DNA of 64,000 nt from an archaeon (GTDB lineage: Archaea > Thermoproteota > Nitrososphaeria > Nitrososphaerales > JACAEJ01). The stretch covers positions 2,359 to 66,358 of the forward strand of contig JACGUG010000004.1 in assembly GCA_024256285.1 (NCBI GenBank). Direction: 5' to 3'. A program made the position numbers and the translations under genes. Of this stretch, positions 27,985 through 41,533 are shown one piece after another. Within the stretch, counting starts at the first letter, position 1, and each line of letters begins with the position of its first letter. Below the pieces are notes generated by a model. It did not search any database, was not told where the DNA came from, and saw only the letters and a list, made by a program, of their open reading frames with translations.

Positions 27985-28000
27985 CTGATTCCCTCCTCGA

Positions 28001-28411: not shown

Positions 28412-28430
28412 CTTTCTATCTCACCTCCTA

Positions 28431-29039
28431 TCAATTATGCTCCTCCATTCCTATAAATTCACCATGCCAGCTGTGATACCACACATCGCCGGTATAGCCG
28501 TTCACACTCAACATCCCAGACATCCTTCCGTCTATTGAAACATCCATGGTGTAGTAGCCATAGAACATCTTGGGCTCCTCTACACTTGCACCTGGAATGT
28601 TCGTGTCCAACCATCTTTGGCCGTATCCTGAAGCTTCCTTAGCGTCTATAGGCATAGAAGCCGTGGGGTTGATGACCCTTCCCATATGTCCATACTTCTG
28701 GTTCCACATCATATTCGGCCCTGGCTCAAAAACTATCCTTCCAGTATACCTGTCTACTAAGAGCTCGAAGGCGTTTATCCCTATGCTCTTCTCCTGAACT
28801 ATGATATAGAAGTGGTTGGAGAACTCCATGATCTCTTCGATTCTATAGCCCCCACCTAAACTAGATAGATACCGCTCGACTAGCTCTTCGGCTTGCTCTA
28901 TGCTATCCACAGCCTCGGCCGAATACAGAGCAGGTGAAAATGAGATAGAAATGACAAGTGCAACAGCTACCAACCCTAGGACAAGGACTAGCAACGCTAC
29001 GATCGGAAACCGACGTTGCTCATCTTGTTTTACTTTCAT
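28431..29039 (-). CDS. Membrane-anchored extracytoplasmic protein with PepSY-like repeats
   Basis: An N-terminal transmembrane anchor is followed by two modules ending …LLVDRYTGRIVFEP and …LSVNGYTGDVWYHSWHG, which resemble PepSY folds. The call is by eye. Confidence 0.5.
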   Translation of the reverse strand: MKVKQDEQRRFPIVALLVLVLGLVAVALVISISFSPALYSAEAVDSIEQAEELVERYLSSLGGGYRIEEIMEFSNHFYIIVQEKSIGINAFELLVDRYTGRIVFEPGPNMMWNQKYGHMGRVINPTASMPIDAKEASGYGQRWLDTNIPGASVEEPKMFYGYYTMDVSIDGRMSGMLSVNGYTGDVWYHSWHGEFIGMEEHN

Positions 29040-29090
29040 ATCAATACCTCCACCTTATTATATGTTAATGGAGGAAGAAGTACTTGCCCC

Positions 29091-29108
29091 TTAACATCTG
29101 TAAAGTTT
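29091..29108 (+). promoter_or_regulatory. Candidate operator (site B) upstream of the PepSY-like/copA operon
   Basis: TTAACATCTGTAAAGTTT matches 15/18 with the reverse complement of 29782-29800. It lies in the 83-nt gap between the copR-like stop and the operon start. Confidence 0.35.
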
Positions 29109-29122
29109 TGGACGAGTAGACT

Positions 29123-29749
29123 TTACGACTCTTCAGGAAACCTCTTCAGCCTCGCTGCATACCTCTCCTTGTAGGCTTCAAGGCAGGTATTACAGCAGAA
29201 GAACCGGGTCCCCTCCCCCACCCTAAGGGTATGTGGCCTCCCTGCGATCTCACCTCCACAGTAGTCGCAGGCCATCCTGATCTTCAGCTCAGGCTTCAAG
29301 AGGAGAGAAGGCCCTTCCTTCACCACCTTCGTAACTATCTGGGTTGTAGTCAGGGAGACTCCTGGCAGGGTGGTAACTTCCTCCTCGATGAAGCGCTGAA
29401 GATCCTCCAACCCTTCCACCATCAACTTCGCCACCAAGTTGCTCTCCCCCGCTGTAGTGAAGACATCGATCACCTCTTCCTTCAAGGCGAGAGACTCCTG
29501 CACTTCGCTTAGATCTTTGGCTTCAACTCGGAGATGCAGAATTGCCATGACTCCCTGTTCCACCTTGGTAAGGTCGAAGATCGGGGCGAAACCTTTGATG
29601 AAGCCCGCATCCTTCATCCGCCTGATCCTGGCCTCCACTGTAGGGGTCGATACTCCAACACGTTTAGCTACCTGCCTGTAGGAGAGCCTTCCATCCTCCA
29701 TCAGGGCCCTTAAGATGGCTATATCCAGACTGTCGAGGATTAGGGGCAT
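29123..29749 (-). CDS. Lrp/AsnC-family regulator with a C-terminal TRASH domain (CopR/CopT-like copper-responsive regulator)
   Basis: The N-terminal HTH reads LDSLDIAILRALMEDGRLSYRQVAKRVGVSTPTVEARIRRM. The C-terminus reads CDYCGGEI…FFCCNTCLEAYKERY. Confidence 0.8.
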   Translation of the reverse strand: MPLILDSLDIAILRALMEDGRLSYRQVAKRVGVSTPTVEARIRRMKDAGFIKGFAPIFDLTKVEQGVMAILHLRVEAKDLSEVQESLALKEEVIDVFTTAGESNLVAKLMVEGLEDLQRFIEEEVTTLPGVSLTTTQIVTKVVKEGPSLLLKPELKIRMACDYCGGEIAGRPHTLRVGEGTRFFCCNTCLEAYKERYAARLKRFPEES

Positions 29750-29781
29750 CTTACGGGAGTTAGATGGTTATCACTCAAGAT

Positions 29782-29800
29782 AAACTTTACGTATGTGAAA
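29782..29800 (+). promoter_or_regulatory. Candidate operator (site A) upstream of the copR-like gene
   Basis: AAACTTTACGTATGTGAAA is internally pseudo-palindromic (TTTAC…GTGAA). It lies 33-51 nt upstream of the copR-like ATG and is similar to site B. Confidence 0.35.
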
Positions 29801-30161
29801 CGTTAGCCACAGGAACTTGACATTCGTTAAGGTTTGCTTTGTTGCAGGCGGCATCCCCCACTTAAAACTTTGGTTCCACTAGCAACGGATTGGCTTTGAG
29901 AACATGGTGGACAAAGAGGTATGTAACGTTCAAACTATCAGCTACAGAATTGGTATTATACTCTGCCCCTCTTTGAACGAATTAAAAGATAGTCCCCTTA
30001 TGAGACTTTGCTAGCTCATGATACATCAAAGCATGTTTCTTTATAGATTCTTATGTCTCTGATGTTAAAAAGAATGTTTTATGTTCTTCCTTTAAAAATT
30101 TCAGTTGACAATTCACATCTGAATGCATATCATCTCACCAATAAATAAAAAAACAGATAAA

Positions 30162-30176
30162 TATAACGCTGTTATA
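30162..30176. promoter_or_regulatory. TATAAC-GCT-GTTATA palindrome (perfect), orphan copy in a 700-bp non-coding gap
   Basis: It is an exact 6+3+6 inverted repeat, and no ORF of 60 aa or more lies nearby. Confidence 0.5.
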
Positions 30177-30446
30177 GTAATGGGCTAGGGTGATAGTTCA
30201 CCTTGCATATTTGGCGATAGCACTACCACTATTTTAGTTTTGGTTTACAGAAAAGAGGTCTAGAGGACCATAACTTGCTATGTGGTCCATGAAAAATAAT
30301 CACGTCTCAGCGAGGATTTCTTGGCTGTTGAGCGAAGAATTCCTTGGATATCTATACAGCTAACAAATGGGGCTCATAATGTTACACCCGTACTCTTCGT
30401 CTACGATGGTCTGAGTATTTTTTCATGACCTACATTCAGCAAACTC

Positions 30447-31334
30447 TCACATTCGCCCTATTTCTAGTATGCGTTCTTGATGTGTCAACACGTTCATTCT
30501 TCTTCCTCTAACAAAGCTGATTATAGTTGTTCCAGTCAGTCGGGCAACTTCGATACCAGAGTAGATGGCCGCAGAGATGGAGGCGACTATCGGGATCTTC
30601 ATACGTGCTGCTTTTAAGACTATGTCTCCTGTGAGTCGTCCGCTTGAAGCCAGAAAACATTCATCGAAGCCAATCTTTTTAAGGGCTACTGCACCTATTA
30701 CTTTGTCTACCGCGTTATGGCGCCCCACATCCTCTGCCCAGACCAAAAGATCGCCTCTATGGGAGTAGATGGCTGCTATGTGGACTCCTCCTGTTTTACG
30801 GTATACTCCATCGAGGGTATTGAGGCGTTTGACCGACTCCGCTATGATTTTTGCTTCGACCTTAGATCTGGATGCAGATCGGGGGAGGCTTAGTCTATCC
30901 ATAAGTTTAGAGAGAGGCCAGTAGTCGGCGGAGCCACATGCAGACACGATCAATCGGGCGAAGGGTTGTGAGACAGCAATCCGTTTTTCGGCATCGACAC
31001 TCGGTGTTAGCCTGACTTGACAATTTCCATCTTTATCTATTTGTATTCTTCGAATCTCCTCTAAAGATTTCAGTACCCCTTCTGAGAGGAGGTGGCCGAC
31101 AGCCAACTCTTTTAACTGGCCTGGAGAGCAAAGAATCGAGACATAGCGGGTTTTGTTCAGAAATATGTGTAGGGGCGTCTCCTCTGCCACAAAATCAATT
31201 TTTGTCTCTATTTTTTTAGACGAAAGATTTATCTGTGTAACTTGAACCTTCTTCAAATCGATCCTCCTCAGTTGGAGATAAGTTAAGAGTTCTCCCTCGG
31301 AAAGGTCTCCTATATCTGCTTGTGAACATGTCAA
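30447..31334 (-). CDS. fdhD: FdhD-family sulfurtransferase (formate dehydrogenase / Mo-bisPGD sulfuration accessory protein)
   Basis: GGVHIAAIY…EDVGRHNAVDKVIGA…SGRLTGDIVLKAARMKIPIVASISA is typical of FdhD. The start codon is TTG. Confidence 0.8.
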   Translation of the reverse strand: MTCSQADIGDLSEGELLTYLQLRRIDLKKVQVTQINLSSKKIETKIDFVAEETPLHIFLNKTRYVSILCSPGQLKELAVGHLLSEGVLKSLEEIRRIQIDKDGNCQVRLTPSVDAEKRIAVSQPFARLIVSACGSADYWPLSKLMDRLSLPRSASRSKVEAKIIAESVKRLNTLDGVYRKTGGVHIAAIYSHRGDLLVWAEDVGRHNAVDKVIGAVALKKIGFDECFLASSGRLTGDIVLKAARMKIPIVASISAAIYSGIEVARLTGTTIISFVRGRRMNVLTHQERILEIGRM

Positions 31335-31347
31335 CCTATCACAGTTT

Positions 31348-31362
31348 CATAACATTATTATA
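31348..31362. promoter_or_regulatory. Degenerate palindrome cATAAC-ATT-aTTATA (10/12), 14 nt upstream of the fdhD start
   Basis: It has the same 6+3+6 geometry as the perfect copies, with one mismatch per half-site. Confidence 0.3.
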
Positions 31363-31465
31363 GTTTAATCCCATTGTGTGATTAGTCTTCTAAGATTTCT
31401 TTCGCTTTCTTTCATATATAATCATGATACATTCTATCTTTCCCTCCCATTTATCTACACTTTTC

Positions 31466-32674
31466 TCATTTAATCGACCTTGAAATCTCCTCAACCGAAG
31501 AAACCAGCTTCTCGATCTCCTCTTGGGTGTTATAGAGATATGTGGAGGCTCGGACGGATCCCCTATGTCGCTTTAGCAAGATTTTCATCAAGGGAAGAGC
31601 GCAATGGGCCCCTGATCTGACCATGATGTTGGCAGAGATATCCAAAGCTAAGGCCACGTTGTGAGGGTTCAGGTCTTTGATGTTGAAGGAAACTATGCTG
31701 ATTCTTTTTTCCAAGTTTTCAGGACCGTAAACTTCGACTTGGGGGATATCTTTTAATCTATAGTGCATCTCCTTAGTTAGTTCCCTTTCATGTGTTTCTA
31801 TGTTCTTCATCCCGATCTTCCTCAGATAATCAGTTGCTGCACCTAATCCGATGACTTCAGCAATCGCAGGAGTTCCAGCTTCAAACCTTTTAGGAATTTC
31901 ATTCATTTTGTAGTAGTCTAAGCCGACATCCTCGATCGTTCCTCCACCGATAGCCATGGGTTCGATCTTTTCCAGCAGATCTTCATGGGAGTAAAGTATG
32001 CCGACTCCAGTTGGACCGAGCATCTTGTGACCTGAAAAGGCCAGGTAGTCACATCCGATTTTTTGAACATCTACTTTCAAATGGGGAACTGATTGGGCTG
32101 CGTCGATAAGCAACTGAGCGCCATGTTCATGGGCAATCTGGGCAACTTCTCTAACTGGCGTTATCACGCCTAAAACGTTTGAAACATGGGTCATTGCCAC
32201 CAAATCTGTTTTATCATCTATCGCTTTTTTGAAATCAGAAATATCGAAAAGCCCCTCCTTGTTCGGTCTAACGATCTCCACATCTACCCCATATCTTCGC
32301 TTCAGACGTAACCAGACTATGAAGTTAGAGTGGTGCTCGATAAGTGTAGTGACTATTTTTCGTCCCTTCTTCCAGTTTAGCCCGTTTGCGACAAGATTTA
32401 TGCCTTCGGTGGTGTTCTTGGTCGTTATTATTTCGGATTCAGACCTAGCATTAATAAATTCAGCAACCTTAGAGCGAGCCTCTTCGTACTCCTCGCTAGC
32501 TCTCTGAGAGAGTCTGTGGATGCCACGTTCAACATTAGCACGGTACTCATGGTAAAACTCCAACATCTTTTGGAGAACAGGCTCTGGGGTTAGGCTGGTT
32601 GCGGCATTGTCTAAGTAAATGATCCCAGAATTTAGCAAAGGGAAATCTTGCCTAATCCTCTGCACATCTAGCAA
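31466..32674 (-). CDS. Class II (SufS/CsdA-type) cysteine desulfurase
   Basis: The PLP lysine context is SGHKMLGPTGVGILY, and the catalytic Cys loop is RSGAHCA. Length is 402 aa, with a TTG start. Confidence 0.88.
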   Translation of the reverse strand: MLDVQRIRQDFPLLNSGIIYLDNAATSLTPEPVLQKMLEFYHEYRANVERGIHRLSQRASEEYEEARSKVAEFINARSESEIITTKNTTEGINLVANGLNWKKGRKIVTTLIEHHSNFIVWLRLKRRYGVDVEIVRPNKEGLFDISDFKKAIDDKTDLVAMTHVSNVLGVITPVREVAQIAHEHGAQLLIDAAQSVPHLKVDVQKIGCDYLAFSGHKMLGPTGVGILYSHEDLLEKIEPMAIGGGTIEDVGLDYYKMNEIPKRFEAGTPAIAEVIGLGAATDYLRKIGMKNIETHERELTKEMHYRLKDIPQVEVYGPENLEKRISIVSFNIKDLNPHNVALALDISANIMVRSGAHCALPLMKILLKRHRGSVRASTYLYNTQEEIEKLVSSVEEISRSIK

Positions 32675-32699
32675 TTTGTATGCCTCCGTTGTATTCTTT

Positions 32700-32714
32700 T
32701 ATAACGCTGTTATT
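32700..32714. promoter_or_regulatory. TATAAC-GCT-GTTATt palindrome (11/12) between a TATA-like box and the cysteine desulfurase start
   Basis: The minus strand reads TTTATATAATAACAGCGTTATA, followed about 25 nt later by the TTG start with GGAGG in between. Confidence 0.5.
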
Positions 32715-32724
32715 ATATAAATAT

Positions 32725-33195
32725 CTACCAACACAATAACTCACTTCCTTTTGAATGAATCGCCCATATCAGGAGAAACGATACGATTCTTGCGACACTT
32801 GCTAATGGATGACCCTTAGCCTTGAGTTCAAGTGTGCAGAACCAACCGAAGGGAGTTCTGACAACCTTAAAGCCTTTTTCAATCAATCCTTTTTTCGTTA
32901 GCTCTAGTATCTCTACTGCGACCTCCGGTTTGCTCAGTTCTCCAAATAGATGAGTGAAGGGATGAAGAACCATAGTGCCTATCTTTAGTTGTTTGGCCAG
33001 CTTGGATATCTGTTCGGTGGCTTTCCTTGAGACCGATTCAGGATCGCGTTCATCTTGTTTCTCAACACTTGATAAAATGATCAATGCTTCCTTTACTTCC
33101 ATGGTCTTGGATTCGGGCTCTTCAACAATCCTAGACCTGCCCTTCTTGCTGATTGTAGAACGGAAATAGTCCACGTGAAGCATAAGCATCCTCAT
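32725..33195 (-). CDS. Free-standing archaeal ThrRS-editing-domain-like protein (tRNA-Thr_ED / DTD-like fold), paralog 1
   Basis: MRMLMLHVDYF…EALIILSSVEKQDERDPE…VLHPFTHLFGELSKPEVAVEIL…PFGWFCTLELKAKGHPLASVARIV resembles the N-terminal editing domain of archaeal ThrRS, as I recall it from Pyrococcus. No synthetase or anticodon-binding domain is attached. Confidence 0.7.
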   Translation of the reverse strand: MRMLMLHVDYFRSTISKKGRSRIVEEPESKTMEVKEALIILSSVEKQDERDPESVSRKATEQISKLAKQLKIGTMVLHPFTHLFGELSKPEVAVEILELTKKGLIEKGFKVVRTPFGWFCTLELKAKGHPLASVARIVSFLLIWAIHSKGSELLCW

Positions 33196-33234
33196 CTTCG
33201 CCCAACCCCATGTCTCCTCAAGGATAGGACTAGA

Positions 33235-33699
33235 TCAATGTTTCAAGTATTCTGCTCTGACTTTTCTCTGACTCCTCCTTAGAATTTCTAACAGCGTTGA
33301 TGAAGATATATTCAGGCTTTTGGCTAGTTCTGCAAGAGTTTTCCTCTTTGGGTAGTCGAAATAGCCTGCTTCAAAAGCCGCCTGAATTATCTGCTCCTGT
33401 CTATGTGTCAATACTTCTTTGACCTTCGCTCTAGTGACCTTGTTTATTTCAACCTCCAATCCCCTGTCAGCAAACTTTTTCAATAGACGCTTGAACTGAT
33501 CGAGCCCTCCCAGGGTGAGAGTATATTCTACATAACCGTTCTTCTTGGTTCTAGCAGAGGCGAGAAAGCATTTTGACTCTGTGAATATTCTACAAGCGAG
33601 ACACTTTGAAGTCTTTATCCAGCCAAAAGCCCTGTCTCTTCCAACTCTGATGATATCGAATTCACAGATAAGCTTGTTTTGATTCATACTTTCTATCAC
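33235..33699 (-). CDS. HTH_10 (Bat/COG3413-like) DNA-binding protein
   Basis: The C-terminus reads LTHRQEQIIQAAFEAGYFDYPKRKTLAELAKSLNISSSTLLEILRRSQRKV. The N-terminal domain may be shortened, because the upstream 200 bp has only broken frames. Confidence 0.65.
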   Translation of the reverse strand: MIESMNQNKLICEFDIIRVGRDRAFGWIKTSKCLACRIFTESKCFLASARTKKNGYVEYTLTLGGLDQFKRLLKKFADRGLEVEINKVTRAKVKEVLTHRQEQIIQAAFEAGYFDYPKRKTLAELAKSLNISSSTLLEILRRSQRKVRAEYLKH

Positions 33700-33902
33700 G
33701 TCATCAAGGATTTCATCTGACCCAGATATCTCTACAATTCTTCTGTATCACATTCGCCATCTCCCGGTTTGCAACTCTTAATCTTGACAATCACGATACT
33801 TTTTAGTGATCTCTTCTATCCACGTATGAACAGTCTTAAGAGACAGGACAACCTCGATCAAGGCTTACACCAAAGATGCTTTCCATTTCAGCCTGACTAG
33901 TG

Positions 33903-34982
33903 TTAGACCATGGGAAGACCTAACCTTTCAGCGATTTTCCTGTATGTCTTCAATGCAGACTCTTCATCGTAAATCCCTGAACCAGGGGCTACCTGTAATA
34001 TAGATACTCCTCCCTTCAGCACGCTCACCCCCACTTCTTTACTATAATCAAAGGTCAGACCCATTGTGCCCTCTGCCTTTAAGGGGATTCCTTCAGCCCA
34101 AAGCTTGTTTCTTATACCTTCTATATCAAGGGCTTTTACTCTCGTGTCAACGATGAAGACGCCCCTTCCATCCCTCCCGCAGACCCCACTCACAGCCTTT
34201 TCGAGCACTTGAGAAGTCTCGATTCTAGCTTCCCCACATGTAGGGCAATTGACATTCCTTGATAACTCTACCACATCGAAGCAGAAGTTCTCAAGGTCCA
34301 CGAACATGAGGCGGTTTTTGAGGTAGGGTTCTCTGTTCAGCAGGATTCTAACTGCCTCGGAGACTTCGATGCTGGAAACTACATCGAGAAGAGGTGTAAA
34401 GACTCCCACGATTGCGCATCTTTCCATATCTTCATCTTTTAGACCTGAGTAAAAGCACTCAAGGCAAGCAGTTTCCCCTGGGATGAAGGTTGATACGTTT
34501 CCAAAGGTCTGGATAGCAGCCCCAAAGATGTAAGGTATCTTCAGCTTTACGGCTGCCCTATTCAAGATGTACCTGGCTCCTATAGTATCCAATCCATCGA
34601 TAACCAGATCTACTCCCTCTATCAGCTCTTCAACGTTGTGAGAGGTGATGGATGTTGCTATGGGGTCTACCTCTACACTGGAATTCAATATACTCAGCCT
34701 CTTTACAGCAGCTTCAACTTTTGGCATACCTATACAGGATTCGTCATAGAGATACTGCCTGTGGAGGTCTGACTTCGATACAACGTCTCTATCGATAACA
34801 CGAAGGTAACCTATGCCCATGGCTACCATCTTCAAGGCTATGGGAGAGCCAAGCCCCCCCGCTCCCACGAGGCATACCCTCCCTGCTCTGAGAAGTGACT
34901 GCCCTTCATACCCTATGTAATTCAGAGCGATCTGCCTTGAATACCTCTCCAACTCTTCATCTGTAAGCTCAGTTCTTCCCAT
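33903..34982 (-). CDS. ThiF/MoeB/UbaA-type E1-like adenylyltransferase with a C-terminal extension of about 100 aa
   Basis: RYSRQI and GAGGLGS form the nucleotide-binding motif. There are two CxxC pairs (CLEC, CPTC). The C-terminal extension has no rhodanese signature that I can see. Confidence 0.85.
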   Translation of the reverse strand: MGRTELTDEELERYSRQIALNYIGYEGQSLLRAGRVCLVGAGGLGSPIALKMVAMGIGYLRVIDRDVVSKSDLHRQYLYDESCIGMPKVEAAVKRLSILNSSVEVDPIATSITSHNVEELIEGVDLVIDGLDTIGARYILNRAAVKLKIPYIFGAAIQTFGNVSTFIPGETACLECFYSGLKDEDMERCAIVGVFTPLLDVVSSIEVSEAVRILLNREPYLKNRLMFVDLENFCFDVVELSRNVNCPTCGEARIETSQVLEKAVSGVCGRDGRGVFIVDTRVKALDIEGIRNKLWAEGIPLKAEGTMGLTFDYSKEVGVSVLKGGVSILQVAPGSGIYDEESALKTYRKIAERLGLPMV

Positions 34983-35141
34983 TCAACTCACCCCAAGAGA
35001 ATATCAGATTGTCAAAACTCCTTTTATAAATGGATGAAACCTTAACCCATATCTACAGGTTAAAATTTTCACTAATGCTTCACATCCTTACATATATCTC
35101 ACCTAGTTAATATATTAATTTATTTTTGACAAAAAATTCCT

Positions 35142-35474
35142 TTATGAATAATCTACTTCCAGTATTCTTTGAGCCTCTACATCATCTTCAAATAAGTATC
35201 TTGAGGGCATTACATCGACCCTTATGCCAAGATTTTCTAAGGTATCTCTTGTTGGTTGTCCGGTGGCGACTATTATCGCACTTTCTTTGAAAAGTTTTGC
35301 TACTTTATTTTTCTTTATACATCTTTGCAATAATCTGAACATGTTCAGATGATTGCGGCAGTAGAACTGGTGAATATCATGGCATCTACCTATAGTTCGA
35401 CAAATCATCGACGAATTCTTCGATAGGAACTTCGAAGGGGTTATGGGCTCATACATTAGAATACATGTCTCCAT
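35142..35474 (-). CDS. Hypothetical protein (111 aa from the ATG at 35474); the C-terminus is faintly HemD-like
   Basis: The tracked 181-aa ORF overlaps the better-supported plus-strand gene at 35529, so I prefer the internal ATG. …IVATGQPTRDTLENLGIRVDVMPSRY resembles a uroporphyrinogen-III synthase half-domain. The region is AT-rich. Confidence 0.3.
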   Translation of the reverse strand: METCILMYEPITPSKFLSKNSSMICRTIGRCHDIHQFYCRNHLNMFRLLQRCIKKNKVAKLFKESAIIVATGQPTRDTLENLGIRVDVMPSRYLFEDDVEAQRILEVDYS

Positions 35475-35492
35475 ATCCTTACATAAAACATA

Positions 35493-35507
35493 TATAACAA
35501 TGTTATA
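35493..35507. promoter_or_regulatory. TATAAC-AAT-GTTATA palindrome (perfect) centred in a 54-nt divergent intergenic region
   Basis: It lies 18 nt from the ATG at 35474 (minus strand) and 21 nt from the ATG at 35529 (plus strand). Confidence 0.5.
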
Positions 35508-35528
35508 ATTAAAATCTGGGGGATTACT

Positions 35529-35951
35529 ATGAAGATGTTGTTCATCCATTGTAATTACTTCTCCTACCTTACAACCCAAAAAACGAAAGTGGCTGAGGAC
35601 CTCCCAAATGGATGTAAAAGTTGCGCTTTTAAGGACGCATTGGTCGTTTTCGTAACCGCAGAGAAAGTCGACGAGAAAAATCCGCAAAAAGTAGTGGGTA
35701 TGGGGATTAAGGCGATCGTAGACGTTTCAAACAAGGTGGGCGCAAAGAACATCGTCCTCTTCCCCTTTGTGCACCTTTCAGACGAAATCAGTAGTGCAGA
35801 GACGGGGTCAGAAATCATTAGAAACATCTATGAAAACCTCAGTTCTCTTAACTATACAGTTGACAAAGCCCCCTTTGGATGGGAGAAGGTGTTCTCCATG
35901 ACCTCAAAGGGCCATCCGTTGGCAGAGCTTTCTAGGACGATTCGGCCATAG
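35529..35951 (+). CDS. Free-standing archaeal ThrRS-editing-domain-like protein, paralog 2
   Basis: MKMLFIHCNYF…ALVVFVTAEKVDEKNPQKV…VLFPFVHLSDEISSAETGSEII…APFGWEKVFSMTSKGHPLAELSRTIRP is closer to the canonical editing domain than paralog 1. Length is 140 aa, single domain. Confidence 0.75.
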   Translation: MKMLFIHCNYFSYLTTQKTKVAEDLPNGCKSCAFKDALVVFVTAEKVDEKNPQKVVGMGIKAIVDVSNKVGAKNIVLFPFVHLSDEISSAETGSEIIRNIYENLSSLNYTVDKAPFGWEKVFSMTSKGHPLAELSRTIRP

Positions 35952-36001
35952 TCCTAAATCCTTAATTTTGAAAATTCATTGAAAGATAAGCTTATAGGAG
36001 T

Positions 36002-36280
36002 TCATCCTCCGCTAACAGCTGGAATGATCGAAACCTCATCTTCATCTTTTAATACTGTATCAAAATAGTTGAGGAAGCGTACATCTTTACCATCTACGTA
36101 GATGTTGATGAACCTTCTTATATTTCCCGTTGCGTCTAAGAGTTTCGCCTTAAACCTGTCTCCCCATCTTGCAGTCAGCCCATCGATTACCTCCCTTAGC
36201 GTCGACGCCTCCACTTCCACCTCTTTTTCTCCAGTCAAGTTCACTAAAGCTCCATAAAGAACGGTTTTTACTTTGCTCAT
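36002..36280 (-). CDS. MoaD/ThiS-family ubiquitin-like sulfur carrier ending in Gly-Gly
   Basis: …INIYVDGKDVRFL…LKDEDEVSIIPAVSGG is followed directly by the stop. GAGGTG lies upstream of the ATG at 36280. An alternative GTG at 36295 would overlap the ThrC-like stop (GTGA). Confidence 0.75.
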   Translation of the reverse strand: MSKVKTVLYGALVNLTGEKEVEVEASTLREVIDGLTARWGDRFKAKLLDATGNIRRFINIYVDGKDVRFLNYFDTVLKDEDEVSIIPAVSGG

Positions 36281-36291
36281 TTTCACACCTC

Positions 36292-37536
36292 TCACTTTAC
36301 GATCTCTGCAAGTGACTCTAAAGTAGGCTCGATCTCAAAGGGTTTAGCTATACTGTTTAAAAGAGTCTCGGCTGCCTTGAACCCGTTACCAGTGACACAA
36401 CAGACAATCTCCTCATCTGGCGATATCTCTCCAAGCTTGACAAGTTTCTTTAAGACCGCTACTGTCACACCACCGGCAGGCTCGGCGAAGATCCCCTCTG
36501 TTTTCGCTAAAAGTTGGATTGCATCTAATATCTCAAAGTCCGTAACTGATTCGGCCACGCCGCCAGATTCACGTATAGCCTTTATGGCATAAAAACCGTC
36601 TCCCGGGTCTCCTATGGCCAAGCTCTTTGCTACAGTAGAGGGATGCTCGATGGGCTTCACGTCAAGGGCGTTGGCTTTAAAGGCCTTTACTATCGGAGCA
36701 CAACCGGAAGGCTGGGCACCCGTGATTCTAGTCTTTAAATCATCGACTAAATCGAGTCTTTGGAACTCTTTGAGGCCCCTCCAAATGGCACAGAGCAAGG
36801 CTCCACTGGCCATCGGCACTATCACACGGTCTGGAGCTTTCCATCCAAGTTGCTCACATATCTCAAAGGCCAAAGTTTTTGAACCCTCCACATAGTACGG
36901 CCGAATGTTTATGTTCGCAAAGGCCCAGTCGTATACCTCTGAAGCCTGAGCTGCGAGCCGGTTGGCATCATCGTAGGTTCCTTTAACGGCCACTATTCTA
37001 GCTCCATAGATCGTTGCCTGTAGGATTTTGTTGAGTTCGATGTCTGATGGAATGAAAACGTAGCAAGGCAATCCGGCTTTGGCTGCATGAGCCGCTGTAG
37101 CGGCAGCTAGATTGCCTGTTGAAGCACACCCGACAGCCTTGGCGCCAAATTCTAGAGCCTTAGATACGGCAACAGTAGCCGGTCTGTCTTTAAATGAGTA
37201 GGTTGGATTGACCGTATCGTCCTTGATATACAGTTTTCTTAATCCAAATATCTCCGCTAGCCTGTCACATCTGTGTAAAATTGTGTAGCCAGCACCTAGA
37301 TCCACGATTTTTGTTCTATTATTGACGGGTAGGAGTTCGAAGTATCGCCAGACCGTTTTAGGTCTATCTTGAAACGATTTCCTGTCAAGCTCTATGAGGT
37401 CATAGTTGTAGGTTACCTCAAGAGGCCCAAAACAGTCCTCACAAGTGTAAATCTTGGTTGGGAGGTGCTCTCTTCCACACTCTCTACACTTGAGCGATCT
37501 GATATATTCCAGTCTCTCGATACTTTCTATAACCAT
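36292..37536 (-). CDS. Threonine synthase-like PLP enzyme with an N-terminal Zn-ribbon
   Basis: CRECG…CEDCFGPLEVTY is followed by the PLP-lysine region PTYSFKDRPA and a TrpB-like fold II pattern. I prefer the ATG at 37536 over 37554. Confidence 0.8.
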   Translation of the reverse strand: MVIESIERLEYIRSLKCRECGREHLPTKIYTCEDCFGPLEVTYNYDLIELDRKSFQDRPKTVWRYFELLPVNNRTKIVDLGAGYTILHRCDRLAEIFGLRKLYIKDDTVNPTYSFKDRPATVAVSKALEFGAKAVGCASTGNLAAATAAHAAKAGLPCYVFIPSDIELNKILQATIYGARIVAVKGTYDDANRLAAQASEVYDWAFANINIRPYYVEGSKTLAFEICEQLGWKAPDRVIVPMASGALLCAIWRGLKEFQRLDLVDDLKTRITGAQPSGCAPIVKAFKANALDVKPIEHPSTVAKSLAIGDPGDGFYAIKAIRESGGVAESVTDFEILDAIQLLAKTEGIFAEPAGGVTVAVLKKLVKLGEISPDEEIVCCVTGNGFKAAETLLNSIAKPFEIEPTLESLAEIVK

Positions 37537-37542
37537 GTTATA
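37528..37542. promoter_or_regulatory. TATAAC-CAT-GTTATA palindrome (perfect) centred on the likely ThrC-like start codon
   Basis: The CAT spacer is the reverse complement of the ATG at 37534-37536. Confidence 0.45.
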
Positions 37543-37636
37543 ACTGATAATCACCTAATACATTAATATTTTTTTGATAATTCTATTCCAATTAGAATAA
37601 AATTGGGGGGACCCTTGCATCGTTAAATATATAAAC

Positions 37637-37651
37637 TATAACGGTGTTATA
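37637..37651. promoter_or_regulatory. TATAAC-GGT-GTTATA palindrome (perfect) just downstream of a TATA-like box and 39 nt upstream of tRNA-Cys
   Basis: AAATATATAAAC is followed by the palindrome, and the tRNA 5' end is at 37690. Confidence 0.5.
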
Positions 37652-37689: not shown

Positions 37690-37782
37690 GCCGGGGTGGC
37701 CGAGCGGTTAGGCGGCAGGCTGCAGACGGTTCTATGTGTAGAGACCTGCTCTACGCAGGTTCGAATCCTGCCCCCGGCTCCA
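37690..37782 (+). tRNA. tRNA-Cys (GCA) with an 18-nt intron at the canonical 37/38 position and an encoded CCA
   Basis: Manual fold gives: acceptor GCCGGGG/CCCCGGC; D arm GCC…GGC; anticodon stem GCAGG/CCTGC enclosing CTGCAG + 18-nt intron + A; 5-nt variable loop; T arm GCAGG-TTCGAAT-CCTGC; discriminator U followed by CCA. Confidence 0.85.
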
Positions 37783-37848
37783 AGATATTAAAAGACACTC
37801 GAATTGAGGCATCGAAAGTATAAAAAGTTCTATTAAATTGGTGATTTT

Positions 37849-38031
37849 ATGGCTGAAAAGGCTGTAGAGGAAACCTTTGCGGTGTTGTTTGCCCTGATCG
37901 ACTTAAGACAGATTTTTAGAGAGACCAAGCCCACTTATCGGCTTAGCACTGAACAGAAGGAGAAGATCAAGGAGATTCTTGGAGAAGTAAGACAGAGTTT
38001 GGATATTATTGAAAAGGAGCTGGTAACATGA
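37849..38031 (+). CDS. 60-aa predicted helical protein translationally coupled to SepCysS (ATGA overlap)
   Basis: MAEKAVEETFAVLFALIDLRQIFRETKPTYRLSTEQKEKIKEILGEVRQSLDIIEKELVT has amphipathic, heptad-like character. Its stop overlaps the SepCysS ATG. Confidence 0.45.
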   Translation: MAEKAVEETFAVLFALIDLRQIFRETKPTYRLSTEQKEKIKEILGEVRQSLDIIEKELVT

Positions 38032-39209
38032 GGGATATCGTTGGTAACATCGAGATCAGGGCAAGAGAGGAACTCTTCATAAACATTCATCCGATTCAAC
38101 CTGGGGGTAGGCTCACCCCAGAAGCCATGAAGGCTCTCATCGCTTACGGAGACGGCTATTCAACTTGTGATTGGTGCAGGAAGCCCTTCAGGCTCGACAA
38201 GATCCAAAGACCTCCGATAGACGAGTTCCATATTGAACTAGCAAAATTCTTGGGAATGGATCAGGCGAGGGTCGTCCCTGGTGCAAGGAGGGGCTTCCAA
38301 GCCGTCGTCTCTTCGATGATCGAAAAGGGAGACTCTGTGATCGTTTCCTCATTAGCACATTACACAGAATTCTTGGCTGTAGAAGCAGCTAGAGGTGTGG
38401 TTAAGGAAGTCCCCCTAAACGAGAATAAAGTAATCACTGGAGAAAACACAGCCAAAAAGATAGAGGAAGTGAAGAAAGAGACGGGAGCCCTCCCAAAACT
38501 GATCATGATGGACCATTTCGATTACATGCTGGGGAATGAGCATGACGTTCGTGGGGTTGCGCGAGTTGCGAAAGATTACGGTATCCCCTTTCTGTATAAC
38601 GGCGCCTACACAATAGGGGTGATGCCTGTAAATGGGAAAGAGATAGGGGCAGACTTTTTGGTGGGCTCAGGACACAAAAGTTTCGCCTCCCCCGCACCTT
38701 CTGGGATCTTGGCAACTACTGAAGAGTGGTCAGACAGAGTGTTTAGAACGACTCAGATGGTCGGCGATGTGACAAAAAGGAAATTTGGGATTAAAGAAGT
38801 CGAGATGATGGGTTGCACTTTGATGGGCGCCAATCTAATTGCAATGATGGCAAGTTTTCCTACTATAAAAGAGCGGGTTAAACATTGGGACGAAGAAGTC
38901 GAGAAGATCAACTATTTCGTCAAGGAATTTTTAAAGATCCAAGGAAATAGGGTTCTGAGTGAGGTGCCGAGGAAACACACTCTAACGAAGGTAGATACGA
39001 CAGGAAGCTTCGATAAGATTGCGCAAACCCACAAAAGGAGGGGTTTTTTCTTCAGTGATGAGTTAAAAAAGAGGAAGATCGTCGGCGAATTCGCAGGAGC
39101 CACAAAGGCTTGGAAGATGAACACTTATGGACTAACGTGGGATCAGATAAGATACTTGGCCCAAGCATTTCAAGACATTGCAAGAAGATATAACATAGAT
39201 GTAACATAA
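38028..39209 (+). CDS. pscS: O-phosphoseryl-tRNA(Cys):Cys-tRNA synthase (SepCysS)
   Basis: HPIQPGGRLTPEA…GDGYSTCDWC…RLDKIQRPPIDEFH…LAKFLGMD, the PLP site GSGHKSFASPAPSGIL, and GCTLMGANLIAMMASFP match my recollection of archaeal SepCysS sequences. Confidence 0.85.
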   Translation: MRDIVGNIEIRAREELFINIHPIQPGGRLTPEAMKALIAYGDGYSTCDWCRKPFRLDKIQRPPIDEFHIELAKFLGMDQARVVPGARRGFQAVVSSMIEKGDSVIVSSLAHYTEFLAVEAARGVVKEVPLNENKVITGENTAKKIEEVKKETGALPKLIMMDHFDYMLGNEHDVRGVARVAKDYGIPFLYNGAYTIGVMPVNGKEIGADFLVGSGHKSFASPAPSGILATTEEWSDRVFRTTQMVGDVTKRKFGIKEVEMMGCTLMGANLIAMMASFPTIKERVKHWDEEVEKINYFVKEFLKIQGNRVLSEVPRKHTLTKVDTTGSFDKIAQTHKRRGFFFSDELKKRKIVGEFAGATKAWKMNTYGLTWDQIRYLAQAFQDIARRYNIDVT

Positions 39210-39343: not shown

Positions 39344-41533
39344 ATGAACCATCGAAACCATAATAAACATAGTCACCAAGACCATGCTCACCACATAGAA
39401 GAGTTCAAAAGAAGGCTTTGGCTATCCCTTATACTTACAATCCCCATTCTACTTCTTTCCGAAATGATCCAGATATGGTTTGGTTTTAGTCTAAAAATAC
39501 CATTTCAGAAAGAGGTTTTATTCCTTCTATCTCTAATTGTTTACCTTTACGGTGGGTGGCCCTTCTTAAAGGGAATAGTCCAAGAAGTAAAGACCCACCA
39601 GCCAGGGATGATGACCCTTATAGGCACAGCCATATCCGTGGCCTTCTTCTATTCTGCAGGAACAGTCTTCCTCATAGTTGGGAAGGATTTCTTCTGGGAA
39701 CTTGTAACTCTTATCGATGTAATGCTTCTTGGGCACTGGATAGAGGCTAAAAGTGTTCTTGGGGCTTCGAGGGCATTGGAAGAGCTCGTCAAGATAATGC
39801 CTACGACAGCCCACCTTGTCAAAAACGGTGAAATTGCAGATGTCCCAGTTTCACAGTTAAAGACTGACCAAGTTGTTCTTGTTCGTCCAGGAGAGAAGAT
39901 ACCTTCCGATGGCCTTGTAATAGAGGGGAAATCCTTCGTCAATGAAGCCCTTTTGACAGGAGAATCGAAACCCGTTCATAAAGAGACAGAAGATAAAGTG
40001 ATAGGTGGTGCAATAAACGGAGAAGGCGTTTTGAAGGTAAGAATAGAAAGGACAGGTGAAGAAACTTATCTGGCACAGGTAATAAAACTAGTAAGACAAG
40101 CTCAAGAAAGTAGGTCTAGAACTCAAGATCTGGCAAACAGAGCATCGGCCCTTCTTTTTTATGTTGCCCTTGGAGTGGGAATAGTAACCTACATAACATG
40201 GTTTCTTCTTTCTACACCCTTTTTTGCCCTTGAAAGATCCGTTACGGTTCTCGTTATAGCCTGCCCCCATGCCCTCGGTCTGGCAATACCTCTTGTTGTC
40301 GCCCTCTCCACTTCTATAACTGCAAAAAGTGGAATCCTCATCAGGGATAGAAGAGCCTTTGAGATGGTCAAGGATGTAAACGCTGTTGTCTTTGACAAGA
40401 CTGGGACGTTGACAGAAGGCAAGTTCGGGGTTAGTGATGTGGTATCCTTGACGCCTGAAGATGAACTTTTAAAACTCACTTCAAGTGTAGAACTGAACTC
40501 TGAGCATATAATAGCAAAGGCTATTGTGGAATATACAAAGGAAAGAAGTATAGCGATTCCTCAGGTGCAGGAATTCAAGGCGATACCCGGTAAGGGTGCC
40601 TATGGAAAAGTTGAAGACAAAGAAGTCTATGTAGGAAGTCCGAACCTTCTGAAAGAAATGAAGATAGAGATAGAAGATCAGAGGATAAAGGAACTTCAGG
40701 AACAGGGCAAAACGGTCGTTTTTACCATAGTTGATGGAAAACTTGTTGGTGCCTTCGCTCTTTCTGATAAGATAAGAAAGGAATCCTACGAAGCGGTCAG
40801 GAAATTAAAGGAGATAGGGTTAAAGGTCTACATGCTCACAGGGGATGCTGAGGAAGTCGCCCGATGGGTTGCGAAAGAACTCGGTATAGACGAATACTTT
40901 GCCCAAGTCTTGCCCGACGAGAAAGCAGAAAAAGTCAAGCTCTTGAAGGAAAAAGGCTATAAAGTTGCTATGGTCGGCGATGGCGTGAACGATGCTCCCG
41001 CCCTTGTTACGGCAGATGTTGGTATCGCCATAGGTGCTGGAACCGATGTAGCCATAGAAAGTGCAGATATAATCCTCGTGAAAAATGACCCTACGGACGT
41101 TTCAAAGGTTACTGACCTTTCACAGAAAACGTACTCGAAGATGGTTCAGAATCTGTGGTGGGCATCGGGTTATAATATCTTCGCTATACCCCTAGCAGCT
41201 GGTGTTTTGTATAATTTCGGAATAGTCGTAAGTCCTGCGGTGGGGGCCTTGTTTATGTCCTTGAGCACCGCTATAGTTGCCTTTAATAGCCAGACCTTGA
41301 GAAAGTACGAACCAAAGGTTGCAGAGTTTGTAGAGAAGAAGCATATGACCACAGACCCGGTTTGTGGGATGAAGGTAGAACCCGAAAAGGCTTACAGCAA
41401 GATGGAGTATGAGGGATATGTTATCTACTTCTGTTCAGAAGACTGTGAAGAGGAATTTAAGAAGAATCCTGAAAGATACCTATCAAAGATGAAAAAAGAA
41501 GAACCTAAAAAACATGAACATCGCCATCACTAA
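39344..41533 (+). CDS. copB: P1B-type copper ATPase of the CPH (CopB-like) type, with a His-rich N-terminus and a C-terminal TRASH/YHS domain plus His-rich tail
   Basis: The N-terminus reads MNHRNHNKHSHQDHAHH. Core motifs are the transmembrane ACPHALGLAIP, DKTGTLT and GDGVNDAP. The C-terminus has DPVCGMKV…YVIYFCSEDCEEEFKKNPERY…KHEHRHH. Confidence 0.9.
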   Translation: MNHRNHNKHSHQDHAHHIEEFKRRLWLSLILTIPILLLSEMIQIWFGFSLKIPFQKEVLFLLSLIVYLYGGWPFLKGIVQEVKTHQPGMMTLIGTAISVAFFYSAGTVFLIVGKDFFWELVTLIDVMLLGHWIEAKSVLGASRALEELVKIMPTTAHLVKNGEIADVPVSQLKTDQVVLVRPGEKIPSDGLVIEGKSFVNEALLTGESKPVHKETEDKVIGGAINGEGVLKVRIERTGEETYLAQVIKLVRQAQESRSRTQDLANRASALLFYVALGVGIVTYITWFLLSTPFFALERSVTVLVIACPHALGLAIPLVVALSTSITAKSGILIRDRRAFEMVKDVNAVVFDKTGTLTEGKFGVSDVVSLTPEDELLKLTSSVELNSEHIIAKAIVEYTKERSIAIPQVQEFKAIPGKGAYGKVEDKEVYVGSPNLLKEMKIEIEDQRIKELQEQGKTVVFTIVDGKLVGAFALSDKIRKESYEAVRKLKEIGLKVYMLTGDAEEVARWVAKELGIDEYFAQVLPDEKAEKVKLLKEKGYKVAMVGDGVNDAPALVTADVGIAIGAGTDVAIESADIILVKNDPTDVSKVTDLSQKTYSKMVQNLWWASGYNIFAIPLAAGVLYNFGIVVSPAVGALFMSLSTAIVAFNSQTLRKYEPKVAEFVEKKHMTTDPVCGMKVEPEKAYSKMEYEGYVIYFCSEDCEEEFKKNPERYLSKMKKEEPKKHEHRHH

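Follow-up and report, generated by a model that had tools for sequence, protein, structure and literature searches.

A palindrome at tRNA-Cys and sulfur-gene promoters as the probable operator of an archaeal cysteine regulon

Results

A repeated palindrome marks one sulfur and cysteine gene island

Promoters of a sulfur and cysteine gene island in an archaeal stretch of 64 kb (the window) share the palindrome T-ATAAC-RNY-GTTAT-A, which is most likely a regulator binding site, judging from the sequence comparisons described below. Our preferred reading, to which we assign a probability of roughly two in three, is that the palindrome serves as the operator of a dimeric factor, that it defines a cysteine and sulfur regulon held under repression, and that the factor is a small cysteine-rich helix-turn-helix protein.

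An exact search of the window found four perfect copies of TATAACNNNGTTATA (30162, 35493, 37528 and 37637; Table 1), whereas 100 dinucleotide-preserving shuffles of the same DNA contained no perfect TATAAC-N3-GTTATA; the repeat noticed in a first-pass annotation is thus borne out. Five sites match the 13-base core, ATAACNNNGTTAT, perfectly, and every one of them is inside 30162-37651, in agreement with the clustering described earlier. The fifth of these, at 32700, departs from the full palindrome by one mismatch at its outermost base. The hexamers TATAAC and GTTATA occur 22 and 23 times in the window, and away from the palindrome they are, as had been observed, unpaired half-sites, the one exception being a second, overlapping pairing at 37528. 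When up to two mismatches were allowed, 11 sites were returned against 2.5 expected, the remaining matches lying outside the 30162-37651 region. Against this background the weak copy at 31348, correctly described as a 10/12 match (two mismatches), is not significant by itself, and it could be either the remains of a former site or a coincidental match. The motif is confined to one functional gene set, and the other promoters of the window lack it.

Table 1. Palindrome copies (predicted operators) and neighboring genes in the window
Feature	Position	Strand	Basis and remarks
Palindrome copy, perfect; target not identified	30162..30176	+	Exact search; in a 697-nt gene-free gap
FdhD-type sulfurtransferase	30447..31334	-	Pfam FdhD-NarQ 1.1e-66
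Weak palindrome copy, 10/12, before fdhD	31348..31362	-	Not significant by itself
Cysteine desulfurase, class V aminotransferase	31466..32674	-	Pfam Aminotran_5 6.7e-143
Palindrome copy, perfect 13-base core, one outer mismatch	32700..32714	-	Pattern search
ED paralog 1, stand-alone tRNA-Thr_ED-like; no operator of its own	32725..33195	-	Pfam PF08915 3.4e-37
HTH_10 gene, two frameshifts	33235..33861	-	Pfam HTH_10 5.9e-21; only ORF 33235-33699 intact
ThiF/MoeB-type E1 adenylyltransferase; no operator in the window	33903..34982	-	Pfam ThiF 1.9e-67
Palindrome copy, perfect	35493..35507	+	22 nt before ED paralog 2 ATG; overlaps TATA-like stretch 35483-35494
ED paralog 2, stand-alone tRNA-Thr_ED-like	35529..35951	+	Pfam PF08915 4.7e-42
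ThiS/MoaD-type sulfur carrier, Gly-Gly end	36002..36295	-	Pfam ThiS 1.3e-14; sequence
ThrC-like PLP enzyme, first of ThrC-like/ThiS pair	36292..37536	-	Pfam PALP 9e-78; NCBIfam threonine-synthase-like
Palindrome copy, perfect, centred on ThrC-like ATG	37528..37542	-	TATA-like box ~37563-37576
Palindrome copy, perfect	37637..37651	+	Right after TATA-like box 37625-36; 39 nt before tRNA-Cys
tRNA-Cys(GCA), 18-nt intron	37690..37782	+	ARAGORN with intron option; Rfam tRNA 51 bits
60-aa ORF at SepCysSn position	37849..38031	+	Overlaps SepCysS start by 4 nt
SepCysS (Sep-tRNA:Cys-tRNA synthase)	38028..39209	+	NCBIfam TIGR02539 420 bits (cut-off 365); NF006810 626 bits

The copy at 37637 precedes a tRNA gene that ARAGORN called as Ser in a default run; the intron-aware run restored its earlier identification as tRNA-Cys. 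The 60-aa ORF that follows has no Pfam match, and tblastn finds it ahead of SepCysS, at 61-78% identity, in the related loci listed. SepCysS itself is probably co-transcribed with tRNA-Cys, or else is expressed from its own promoter at ~37816-37827. Together with PF08915, present in two genes, the tRNA, the SepCysSn-position ORF and SepCysS form a co-occurring set for tRNA-dependent cysteine synthesis.

Elsewhere in the island, the site at 37528 is indeed centred on the ThrC-like ATG (37536-37534), a start that public gene calls share (414 aa), and it lies downstream of the predicted transcription start (all transcription starts in this report are predicted ones). In the ThrC-like orthologs of related loci L001, L002 and L005, the core lies just ahead of the start. 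The 35493 site is 22 nt away from the ATG of ED paralog 2, but the 54-nt divergent gap reported around that site is doubtful: gene calling gives a minus-strand gene of just 62 aa that ends at ~35330, so the gap measures ~198 nt. ThiF paralogs carry the operator sequence in L001 and in metagenome loci. The site at 32700 occupies the position assigned to it, between a TATA-like box (32715-32724) and the desulfurase TTG at 32674 with its GGAGG Shine-Dalgarno sequence, and close orthologs of the desulfurase (70-76% identity; L110, L112, L127 and L131) have the core ~40-70 nt before the tblastn match. The weak copy lies 14 nt before fdhD only if the TTG at 31334 is the start, the public call beginning at ~31256; fdhD could be expressed by read-through from the cysteine desulfurase promoter. 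Upstream of the 30162 site is an A/T-rich, TATA-like stretch on the plus strand; searches of the surrounding gap for Rfam families and protein remnants found neither, and its fold z-score is -1.6.

The core is conserved at functionally linked promoters

A motif search across related loci, as the first-pass annotation had suggested, shows the core to be conserved at functionally linked genes. Related archaeal genome loci totalling 139 kb contain 15 copies of ATAAC-N3-GTTAT (0.30 expected), and metagenome loci encoding close SepCysS relatives, 837 kb in all, contain 148 (1.22 expected); 1.3 Mb of bacterial loci contain none. Within the metagenome set, the core is present in 55 of 80 loci and stands upstream of 43 of 75 tRNA-Cys genes. 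The features downstream of these sites are tRNA-Cys (53), ED-like genes (33), a small helix-turn-helix family discussed below (26), Aminotran_5 (13), ThiF-like (8) and ThrC-like genes (4). In genome loci of Bathyarchaeia and Caldarchaeales, the core marks the promoters of orthologs and of genes related in function, among them those for sulfite reductase-TusA, DsrE2, NifU, a SerA-like protein and other PALP proteins. The site is also found at P-type ATPase and FTR1 iron permease genes. On a 950-kb contig of 54% GC (L172), the only three cores in 20 kb belong to the ED gene, the gene of the helix-turn-helix family and tRNA-Cys. This distribution suggests a regulon present in a large clade of Bathyarchaeia and partly in Caldarchaeales.

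Among 144 distinct sites, the ATAAC-N3-GTTAT core and its 3-nt spacer are fixed, a flanking T occurs in 117 and a flanking A in 124, and the center reads R-N-Y, extending the dyad symmetry. Alignments of the sites, each oriented to its downstream gene, place a TATA box 0-20 nt upstream; at tRNA-Cys and in the candidate factor's own promoter, this box touches or overlaps the site. At tRNA-Cys promoters, the left half-site falls inside cTTTATAAC, and the commonest distance between the site and the mature 5' end is 16 nt (21 cases), which puts the site upstream of the transcript. The orientation of the site relative to the gene makes no difference. Lying on or just after the TATA box, the sites hold a position typical of repressor sites.

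A small cysteine-rich protein family is linked to the site

The earlier proposal that one dimeric regulator joins sulfur mobilisation, a thiocarboxylate branch and a tRNA gene finds strong support in this conservation; the HTH_10 protein named as that regulator does not. The binder is most likely, on the comparative evidence, a family of small cysteine-rich proteins, which we regard as a better candidate than the local HTH_10 gene. Its members are 104-136 aa long, with an N-terminal helix-turn-helix and invariant Cys5 and Cys94-x2-Cys97; a long form has three further cysteines and one histidine. More than 2,600 homologs exist, mostly from uncultured Bathyarchaeia, and none is characterized. 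The family is encoded in 28 of the 80 metagenome loci, often beside tRNA-Cys (one member lies at L094 9116-9502), and in 23 of these 28 members the core lies between a GTTTATAAGG-type TATA box and the member's own ATG, within 100 nt of the start. In L005, the family member closes a PALP-JAB operon that has the site at its head.

In one diverged lineage, factor and site may have changed together. The homolog of L168/L169 is diverged, and its own promoter has ATTCACAATTGTGAAT plus a near-copy; the palindrome core TCACRATYGTGA lies ~20-25 nt upstream of tRNA-Cys in L162, L167, L168, L169 and L170 and further upstream in others. Palindromes of the TCACAATTGTGA type at both the diverged homolog's promoter and tRNA-Cys are seen in this one lineage (L168/L169) only, and L161 does not fit the pattern, since its factor gene showed no matching palindrome.

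The 64-kb window contains no homolog of the family, and the factor is presumably encoded elsewhere in the genome of this organism. Its presence is also assumed for the genomes of L001, L002, L007, L009 and L083, which bear the motif, since the DNA covered for them contains no homolog. Pfam HTH_3 (cut-off 23) matches the short form at 27.5 bits and the L005 member at 24.4 bits; the long form has no Pfam or NCBIfam match. A structure model shows a generic helix-turn-helix at residues 32-51, and comparison with solved structures returned no significant relative (best match E = 0.5). Any cofactor is a guess, as the model shows only this generic fold.

Other explanations for the palindrome

That the binder is instead the HTH_10 protein encoded at 33235-33699 seems improbable. 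Its gene does lie inside the island, directly 3' of thiF, and its subfamily has a conserved CxxC-x7-C and an N-terminal ferredoxin-like, ACT/NIL-like module. Moreover, L083 encodes an intact ortholog of 209 aa (79% identical) after thiF, as the closing gene of a sulfate-assimilation/thiocarboxylate cluster whose first gene has one perfect site upstream. This linkage is seen in L083 only, however, and there the ThrC-like, ThiS, ThiF and HTH_10 genes are preceded by a promoter that lacks the operator. DNA alignment with the intact ortholog shows that the window copy has suffered a 2-nt and a 1-nt deletion, so that two frameshifts and in-frame stops interrupt its N-terminal part; four operators are nevertheless still perfect. 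No relative turned up by tblastn in 80 motif-rich metagenome loci or by phmmer in L001-L009, and only three close relatives were found among 5.8 billion proteins although the motif is widespread; more distant homologs have genes for hemerythrin, copper oxidase, COX1 or an aminotransferase as neighbors, and the motif is missing from their surroundings. The local Lrp-type protein looks like a copper regulator, since it has a TRASH domain and is encoded beside YHS-domain P-type ATPases. Another factor, either a DtxR/MntR-like protein or a regulator encoded away from the sampled loci, is an unlikely binder but one we take seriously: several motif-bearing loci have no candidate factor at all, the core lies 40-50 nt upstream of a DtxR/MntR-like gene (NCBIfam MntR-like 4.8e-44) in seven of nine loci, and P-type ATPase and FTR1 genes are among those bearing the site. 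But the DtxR-like gene is found in only 9 of the 80 loci and never adjacent to tRNA-Cys, and the known DtxR-family boxes are longer, with their half-sites arranged the other way round. The small cysteine-rich family is linked to the site more often, and its link is paralleled by the apparent operator change in the diverged lineage.

Two further readings were considered. The TATAAC half-site resembles part of an archaeal TATA box, and at many tRNA-Cys promoters it overlaps one, so that the half-sites could be back-to-back TATA boxes of divergent promoters bound by TBP only, the scenario that the first-pass annotation had set against its own proposal. We consider this very improbable: most sites have a separate upstream TATA box and a single downstream gene, the invariant C and G bases and the fixed 3-nt spacing are foreign to TATA boxes, the ends of the spacer keep the R-N-Y symmetry across the 144 distinct sites, the motif is restricted to one gene set, and the palindrome that replaces the site in the diverged lineage contains G/C and has no TATA character. 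A palindrome able to form a 6-bp stem with a 3-nt loop, recurring within a few kb, could also be an RNA hairpin in 5' leaders or the remnant of a mobile repeat. We give almost no credence to either form of this idea, because at tRNA-Cys the palindrome stops 16 nt short of the mature 5' end and overlaps the TATA box, which places it ahead of the predicted start, the stem would be weak and A/U-rich, the flanks of the copies share only their A/T richness, and orientation relative to the gene is irrelevant.

Discussion

We infer that a dimeric factor of the small cysteine-rich family binds the palindrome and co-regulates tRNA-Cys, SepCysSn, SepCysS and the stand-alone ThrRS-editing-domain-like proteins, with cysteine desulfurase, ThrC-like/ThiS/ThiF, sulfite reductase and IscSU-like genes as a variable part of the regulon. 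Because the palindrome lies over the TATA box or immediately behind it, and ahead of the transcription start or across it, the direction of regulation would be repression, the bound factor competing with TBP/TFB or blocking recruitment of RNA polymerase. The invariant cysteines, together with the additional cysteines and the histidine of the long form, would probably hold a metal or iron-sulfur center, the signal being sulfur, cysteine or Fe-S status, and the family appears to regulate its own gene via the same site.

Such an arrangement has partial counterparts. SurR of Thermococcales is a sulfur-responsive factor with a CxxC redox switch and the operator GTT-N3-AAC; there, too, a short dyad with a 3-nt spacer occurs at sulfur-gene promoters, sites at or after the TATA box repress, and a cysteine-based sensor is plausible here too. 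However, ATAAC-N3-GTTAT is longer and its half-site order is inverted relative to GTTn3AAC, the candidate factor does not belong to the ArsR-type winged helices and its long form matches no curated family, and the regulon comprises cysteine synthesis and a tRNA gene rather than hydrogenase and sulfur respiration. TrmB/TrmBL1 acts on the Thermococcales glycolytic motif TATCAC-N5-GTGATA, likewise a palindromic operator that overlaps promoter elements and defines a metabolic regulon, but with a spacer of 5 nt instead of 3 and different half-sites; the candidate factor has no TrmB match above threshold. The resemblance to SurR and TrmB drawn earlier is confined to geometry. MDR1, LrpA, Phr and NrpR, classical archaeal repressors with binding sites on or behind the TATA box, offer a similar placement, with a dyad operator over the TATA box or between it and the start, also at the regulator's own promoter; what differs here is a new factor family and a tRNA gene among the members of the regulon. 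The bacterial Rrf2 proteins IscR and CymR are small, autoregulated helix-turn-helix proteins in which three cysteines hold the sensing center, and between them they cover cysteine desulfurase/IscU and cysteine synthesis genes. This likeness is one of function, without relationship in sequence or fold, and the promoter context here is archaeal and the cofactor putative.

The gene content of the island is familiar from passages of Mukai et al. (2017, PMC5424206), which describe an operon arrangement of tRNA-Cys, SepCysSn and SepCysS, in some cases with SepRS, in Bathyarchaeota, and neighborhoods of clade VII SepCysS with the same content: tRNA-Cys, SepCysSn, SepCysS, tRNA-Thr-ED and sulfur metabolism genes. 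The main text of that paper does not use the word "promoter", and the passages concerned mention no operator or regulator. To what they describe, we add the shared palindrome and the linked factor family.

More tentatively, and at somewhat under even odds, the small cysteine-rich family may be a metal- or Fe-S-based sensor of sulfur status repressing a regulon that has a tRNA gene as its conserved core. If so, cysteine biosynthesis would include the expression of its scaffold, tRNA-Cys, as a regulated step, and induction of this tRNA would go together with that of SepCysS and of a ThrRS-editing-domain-like protein serving as quality control for mischarged tRNA-Cys.

Some genomes keep two copies of tRNA-Cys, one operator-free and one operator-controlled.

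Copies of the palindrome in the window

An exact search of the window recovers four copies of TATAACNNNGTTATA, at 30162, 35493, 37528 and 37637, and none in 100 dinucleotide-preserving shuffles of the same DNA, bearing out the four perfect copies listed in the first-pass annotation. The 11/12 copy it placed at 32700 also holds, its sole mismatch falling in the last base. The 13-base core ATAACNNNGTTAT is intact at five places in the window, all within 30162-37651, consistent with the claim that the copies are confined to a sulfur/cysteine island. A further copy reported at 31348 does carry two mismatches as described; with 2.5 sites of this kind expected, it does not stand out from chance. The window contains 45 TATAAC or GTTATA hexamers, and these form no pairs away from the operator sites, as the reading of them as isolated half-sites had proposed.

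Genes in this part of the window were identified with Pfam and NCBIfam (see table). The arrangement of tRNA-Cys, SepCysSn, SepCysS, tRNA-Thr-ED and sulfur genes has already been described (PMC5424206); the word "promoter" is absent from the main text of that paper. A 60-aa ORF precedes SepCysS in the window, and the ThrC-like protein finds its best relatives in Bathyarchaeia metagenome-assembled genomes.

Features in and beside the sulfur/cysteine island, in window coordinates
Feature	Coordinates	Basis
Lrp/AsnC+TRASH protein	29123-29749	Pfam/NCBIfam
FdhD	30447-31334	Pfam/NCBIfam
Class V cysteine desulfurase	31466-32674	Pfam/NCBIfam
Stand-alone tRNA-Thr_ED protein	32725-33195	Pfam/NCBIfam
HTH_10 protein	33235-33699	Pfam/NCBIfam
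ThiF	33903-34982	Pfam/NCBIfam
Stand-alone tRNA-Thr_ED protein (ED paralog 2)	35529-35951	Pfam/NCBIfam
ThiS-type carrier, C-terminus Gly-Gly	36002-36295	Pfam/NCBIfam
ThrC-like PLP enzyme	36292-37536	Pfam/NCBIfam
tRNA-Cys(GCA), 18-nt intron	37690-37782	ARAGORN, introns allowed
SepCysS	38028-39209	TIGR02539, 420 bits (cut-off 365)

Run with default settings, ARAGORN reports Ser(AGA) and a long variable arm for this tRNA; intron-blind scans can give archaeal tRNAs the wrong name. The 54-nt divergent gap previously drawn in front of ED paralog 2 is doubtful, as it needs minus-strand readings of 111-181 aa that public gene calls do not support. At 35142-35330 the minus strand holds a 62-aa ORF, probably a gene remnant, that weakly resembles the C-terminus of uroporphyrinogen-III synthase (HEM4, E = 0.005). 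A protein identical to ED paralog 2 is encoded in assembly GCA_024256295.1 (contig JACGUF010000077.1).

The perfect operator at 30162 lies in a 697-nt interval (29750-30446) containing no ORF of at least 50 aa. We considered a hidden gene or RNA after this site and rejected it: Rfam has no family downstream, the fold z-score of -1.6 indicates no strong fold, and the gap shows neither similarity to related loci nor a remnant of the factor gene introduced below. On the plus strand the site is preceded by an A/T-rich, TATA-like stretch, and a T-run occurs near 30420. No target of this site could be recognised.

Conservation of the site in related loci

Loci around ThrC-like orthologs were sampled across the species representatives of GTDB. 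Among them, the archaeal loci contain 15 cores in 139 kb, against 0.30 expected, whereas 1.3 Mb of bacterial loci contain none. Cores precede ThrC-like genes (L001, L002, L005), ThiF (L001), cysteine desulfurase (L005), sulfite reductase-TusA (L002, L009), DsrE2, another PALP enzyme and FTR1 (L002), a SerA-like dehydrogenase and a PALP-JAB operon (L005), and an Aminotran_5-NifU pair in Caldarchaeales (L007, L009). With the sites oriented to the downstream gene, nearly all are preceded by a TATA box at a distance of 0-20 nt and stand before or at the start codon. No core was found before the ThrC-like gene of L003, L004 or L006, which represent two higher-GC Bathyarchaeota and one Hadarchaeota relative; at L003 ~1160-1175 and L004 ~955-970 a different small palindrome, GAATAATTATTC, takes the operator's place. 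In L005, a 173-aa protein (5420-5941) with a weak ParB_N match is divergent from cysteine desulfurase, with one operator common to both. Archaeal serine kinase (SerK) has this fold, and if the protein is a SerK it would be a phosphoserine source.

Querying metagenomes with SepCysS from the window yielded 80 loci (837 kb, 71-86% identity) containing 148 cores against 1.22 expected, with at least one core in 55 of the 80. The feature following the site is most often tRNA-Cys(GCA) (53 cases), then ED-like genes, encoding stand-alone relatives of the ThrRS editing domain (33), and a helix-turn-helix family of about 104-136 aa (26). Aminotran_5 genes (13), ThiF-like genes (8), a DtxR/MntR-like gene (7), P-type ATPases (6), Thi4 (5), ThrC-like genes (4) and a methyltransferase (4) make up the remainder of the list. 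Genes for HMA-type P-type ATPases are among those carrying the operator in these loci. Across these loci, 43 of 75 tRNA-Cys genes have a core no more than 110 nt upstream, with a modal gap of 16 nt between site and mature 5' end, and in their promoters the left half-site lies inside a cTTTATAAC TATA box. Among 144 distinct sites, a flanking T is present in 117 and a flanking A in 124; together with an R-N-Y centre these bases extend the dyad to T-ATAAC-RNY-GTTAT-A.

In several loci (L098, L105, L115, L126, L129, L167-L170) tRNA-Cys(GCA) is present in two or three copies. In L098, L105, L115 and L126, the tRNA-Cys before SepCysSn/SepCysS has no operator nearby and a second copy has one within ~110 nt; in L098 and L115 this second copy is followed by an ED-like gene.

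A cysteine-rich helix-turn-helix family as candidate binder

The helix-turn-helix family recovered behind the site is encoded in 28 of the 80 metagenome loci, one member lying at L094 9116-9502. Its members begin with MRPPCELVVK.VLPAFRSLVAK.LIEKY.FSQVAAAEKLGTTQAAISHYLYSKRG and share invariant Cys5 and Cys94-x2-Cys97; a long form adds Cys107, His110 and Cys120-x2-Cys123 and matched no Pfam or NCBIfam model. In 23 of the 28 members a core follows a GTTTATAAGG-type TATA box within a few bases and precedes the ATG by ~5-20 nt, the arrangement to be expected if the factor were autoregulated. On a 950-kb contig of 54% GC (L172), 20 kb of sequence contain just three cores, one each at the ED gene, the factor gene and tRNA-Cys. 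Clustering of the L001-L009 neighbourhoods had found no common regulator, and only once the metagenome loci were analysed was the small HTH_3 gene ending the site-headed PALP-JAB operon of L005 recognised as a family member (E = 1e-35). We found no factor homolog in the available DNA of the window, L001, L002, L007, L009 or L083. At E < 1e-10 there are 2,643 homologs of the family, none with an annotation more specific than "transcriptional regulator". Its structure model is all-helical, with the helix-turn-helix at residues 32-51, and a search of solved structures returned no significant match beyond the generic helix-turn-helix.

L168 and L169 have no ATAAC site, and the promoter of their diverged factor homolog instead carries ATTCACAATTGTGAAT and a near-copy. 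The core of this palindrome, TCACRATYGTGA, recurs ~20-25 nt upstream of tRNA-Cys in L162, L167, L168, L169 and L170, and farther away in others. Factor and operator may thus have changed together: the L168/L169 data agree with this for a single lineage, and L161 differs in not showing the pattern. The palindrome before tRNA-Cys in L161 is TTAACAATTGTTAA. Among the more distant SepCysS loci, TCACRATYGTGA palindromes replace ATAAC-N3-GTTAT before tRNA-Cys in L162, L165 and L167-L170, and in L168 they occur at 1406 and 1434 before the diverged factor homolog.

Proposed mechanism and alternatives

We propose that this cysteine-rich factor binds the site, and put the probability of this reading at about 0.68. 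The dyad symmetry and a half-site spacing of about one helical turn would suit a dimer on adjacent major grooves. Archaeal repressors positioned at or after the TATA box block TBP/TFB binding or polymerase recruitment; because the site covers or closely follows the TATA box and falls ahead of the start or on it, we read it as a putative repressor site. The conserved cysteines may hold a metal or Fe-S centre reporting sulfur, cysteine or Fe-S status, for which bacterial IscR offers a functional analogy, with no homology to the factor found. The conserved regulon core would comprise tRNA-Cys, the SepCysSn and SepCysS genes behind it, the ED protein and the factor's own gene; in certain lineages cysteine desulfurase, thiocarboxylate genes, sulfite reductase, IscSU-like genes and some metal genes join it. 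In the window, the predicted units are tRNA-Cys, probably with SepCysSn and SepCysS (no T-run separates them, and a second TATA-like box lies at ~37816-37827); ED paralog 2; ThrC-like with ThiS; and cysteine desulfurase, perhaps with FdhD.

The first-pass annotation suggested one regulator, with the local HTH_10 protein as candidate, controlling a sulfur/cysteine regulon. The regulon is supported by the conserved cores in related loci, but the choice of regulator is not. DNA alignment to an intact 209-aa ortholog (P0003, 79% identical) reveals deletions of 2 nt and 1 nt in the window gene (frameshift region 33700-33861), placing stops in the N-terminal part and leaving a C-terminal ORF of 150-154 aa; the gene call in the public assembly agrees, at 150 aa. 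The HTH_10 structure model has ferredoxin-like, ACT/NIL-like modules with the helix-turn-helix behind them. Tblastn found no HTH_10 match in the 80 metagenome loci, phmmer none in L001-L009, and a metagenome scan with P0003 no relatives. A homology search of the protein collection returned only three close relatives, and the neighbours of more distant homologs are aminotransferase, hemerythrin, copper oxidase or COX1 genes, without a site in the vicinity. Linkage to the site is confined to L083, the locus of P0003, where a cluster of sulfate-assimilation and thiocarboxylate genes ends with thiF and then the intact HTH_10 gene, and has one perfect site upstream of its first gene. Even there an operator-free promoter, resembling that of the window's ThrC-like gene, precedes the ThrC-like-ThiS-ThiF-HTH_10 part. 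We therefore reject HTH_10 as the main regulator and regard it as a possible but quite unlikely binder. There is a small but real chance that the binder is instead a DtxR/MntR-like protein, whose gene itself carries the operator in related metagenome loci, or an unsampled regulator.

That the half-sites are simply back-to-back TATA boxes, the scenario the earlier annotation set against its own proposal, appears very improbable: separate TATA boxes exist, the first and last spacer bases are symmetric, the site is limited to one functional gene set, and a diverged lineage swaps in a palindrome without TATA character. At the usual TATA-to-start distance, the tRNA-Cys site falls upstream of the predicted transcript, which makes an RNA hairpin very improbable.

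Operators that overlap promoters are a well-known kind of element, and this gene neighbourhood is already on record. Judged by the literature searched, the novelty lies in the operator and its regulon, in a tRNA gene being that regulon's most conserved member, and in the association with an uncharacterised family of cysteine-rich factors. The same literature describes no transcription factor governing cysteine or sulfur assimilation in Bathyarchaeia or related Thermoproteota, and contains no precedent for the motif, an archaeal cysteine regulator or COG2522. A tRNA gene under a metabolite-type operator would be unusual. The site joins tRNA-dependent cysteine synthesis, the unexplained ED proteins, thiocarboxylate sulfur transfer and cysteine desulfurase in one control unit, lending independent support to the earlier idea that ED proteins act with the SepRS/SepCysS system. 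Because these organisms are uncultured, reading regulons from sequence is one of few available ways to see their physiology, and this regulon provides a concrete protein and DNA pair testable in vitro without cultivation.

Additional observations

Between L083 and the window, ThiF and HTH_10 are ~80% identical, ThrC-like 59% and ThiS 48%. The ThrC-like promoter is conserved between L083 7250-7322 and window 37537-37590 (TTATCAAAAA.ATAT.TTAAT), with the operator over the ThrC-like ATG in the window version only. Tandem overlapping cores 13 nt apart (ATAACACTGTTATATAACACCGTTAT) precede tRNA-Cys in L121 (240-265) and L122 (4465-4490), suggesting that two dimers may bind cooperatively.

Two further candidate regulators were set aside. 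A 202-aa protein (28431-29039), common to the window and to Caldarchaeales loci near sites, shows by eye in alignment an apparent N-terminal membrane helix, a conserved repeated domain and no DNA-binding features. The other loci contain no relative of the Lrp/AsnC+TRASH protein, which adjoins YHS-domain P-type ATPases and was read as a copper regulator. Two such ATPases flank the island (25894-29749 and 39344-41533), one clustering with DUF6114, the 202-aa protein, which matches no family, and the Lrp+TRASH regulator in what looks like a copper homeostasis cluster.
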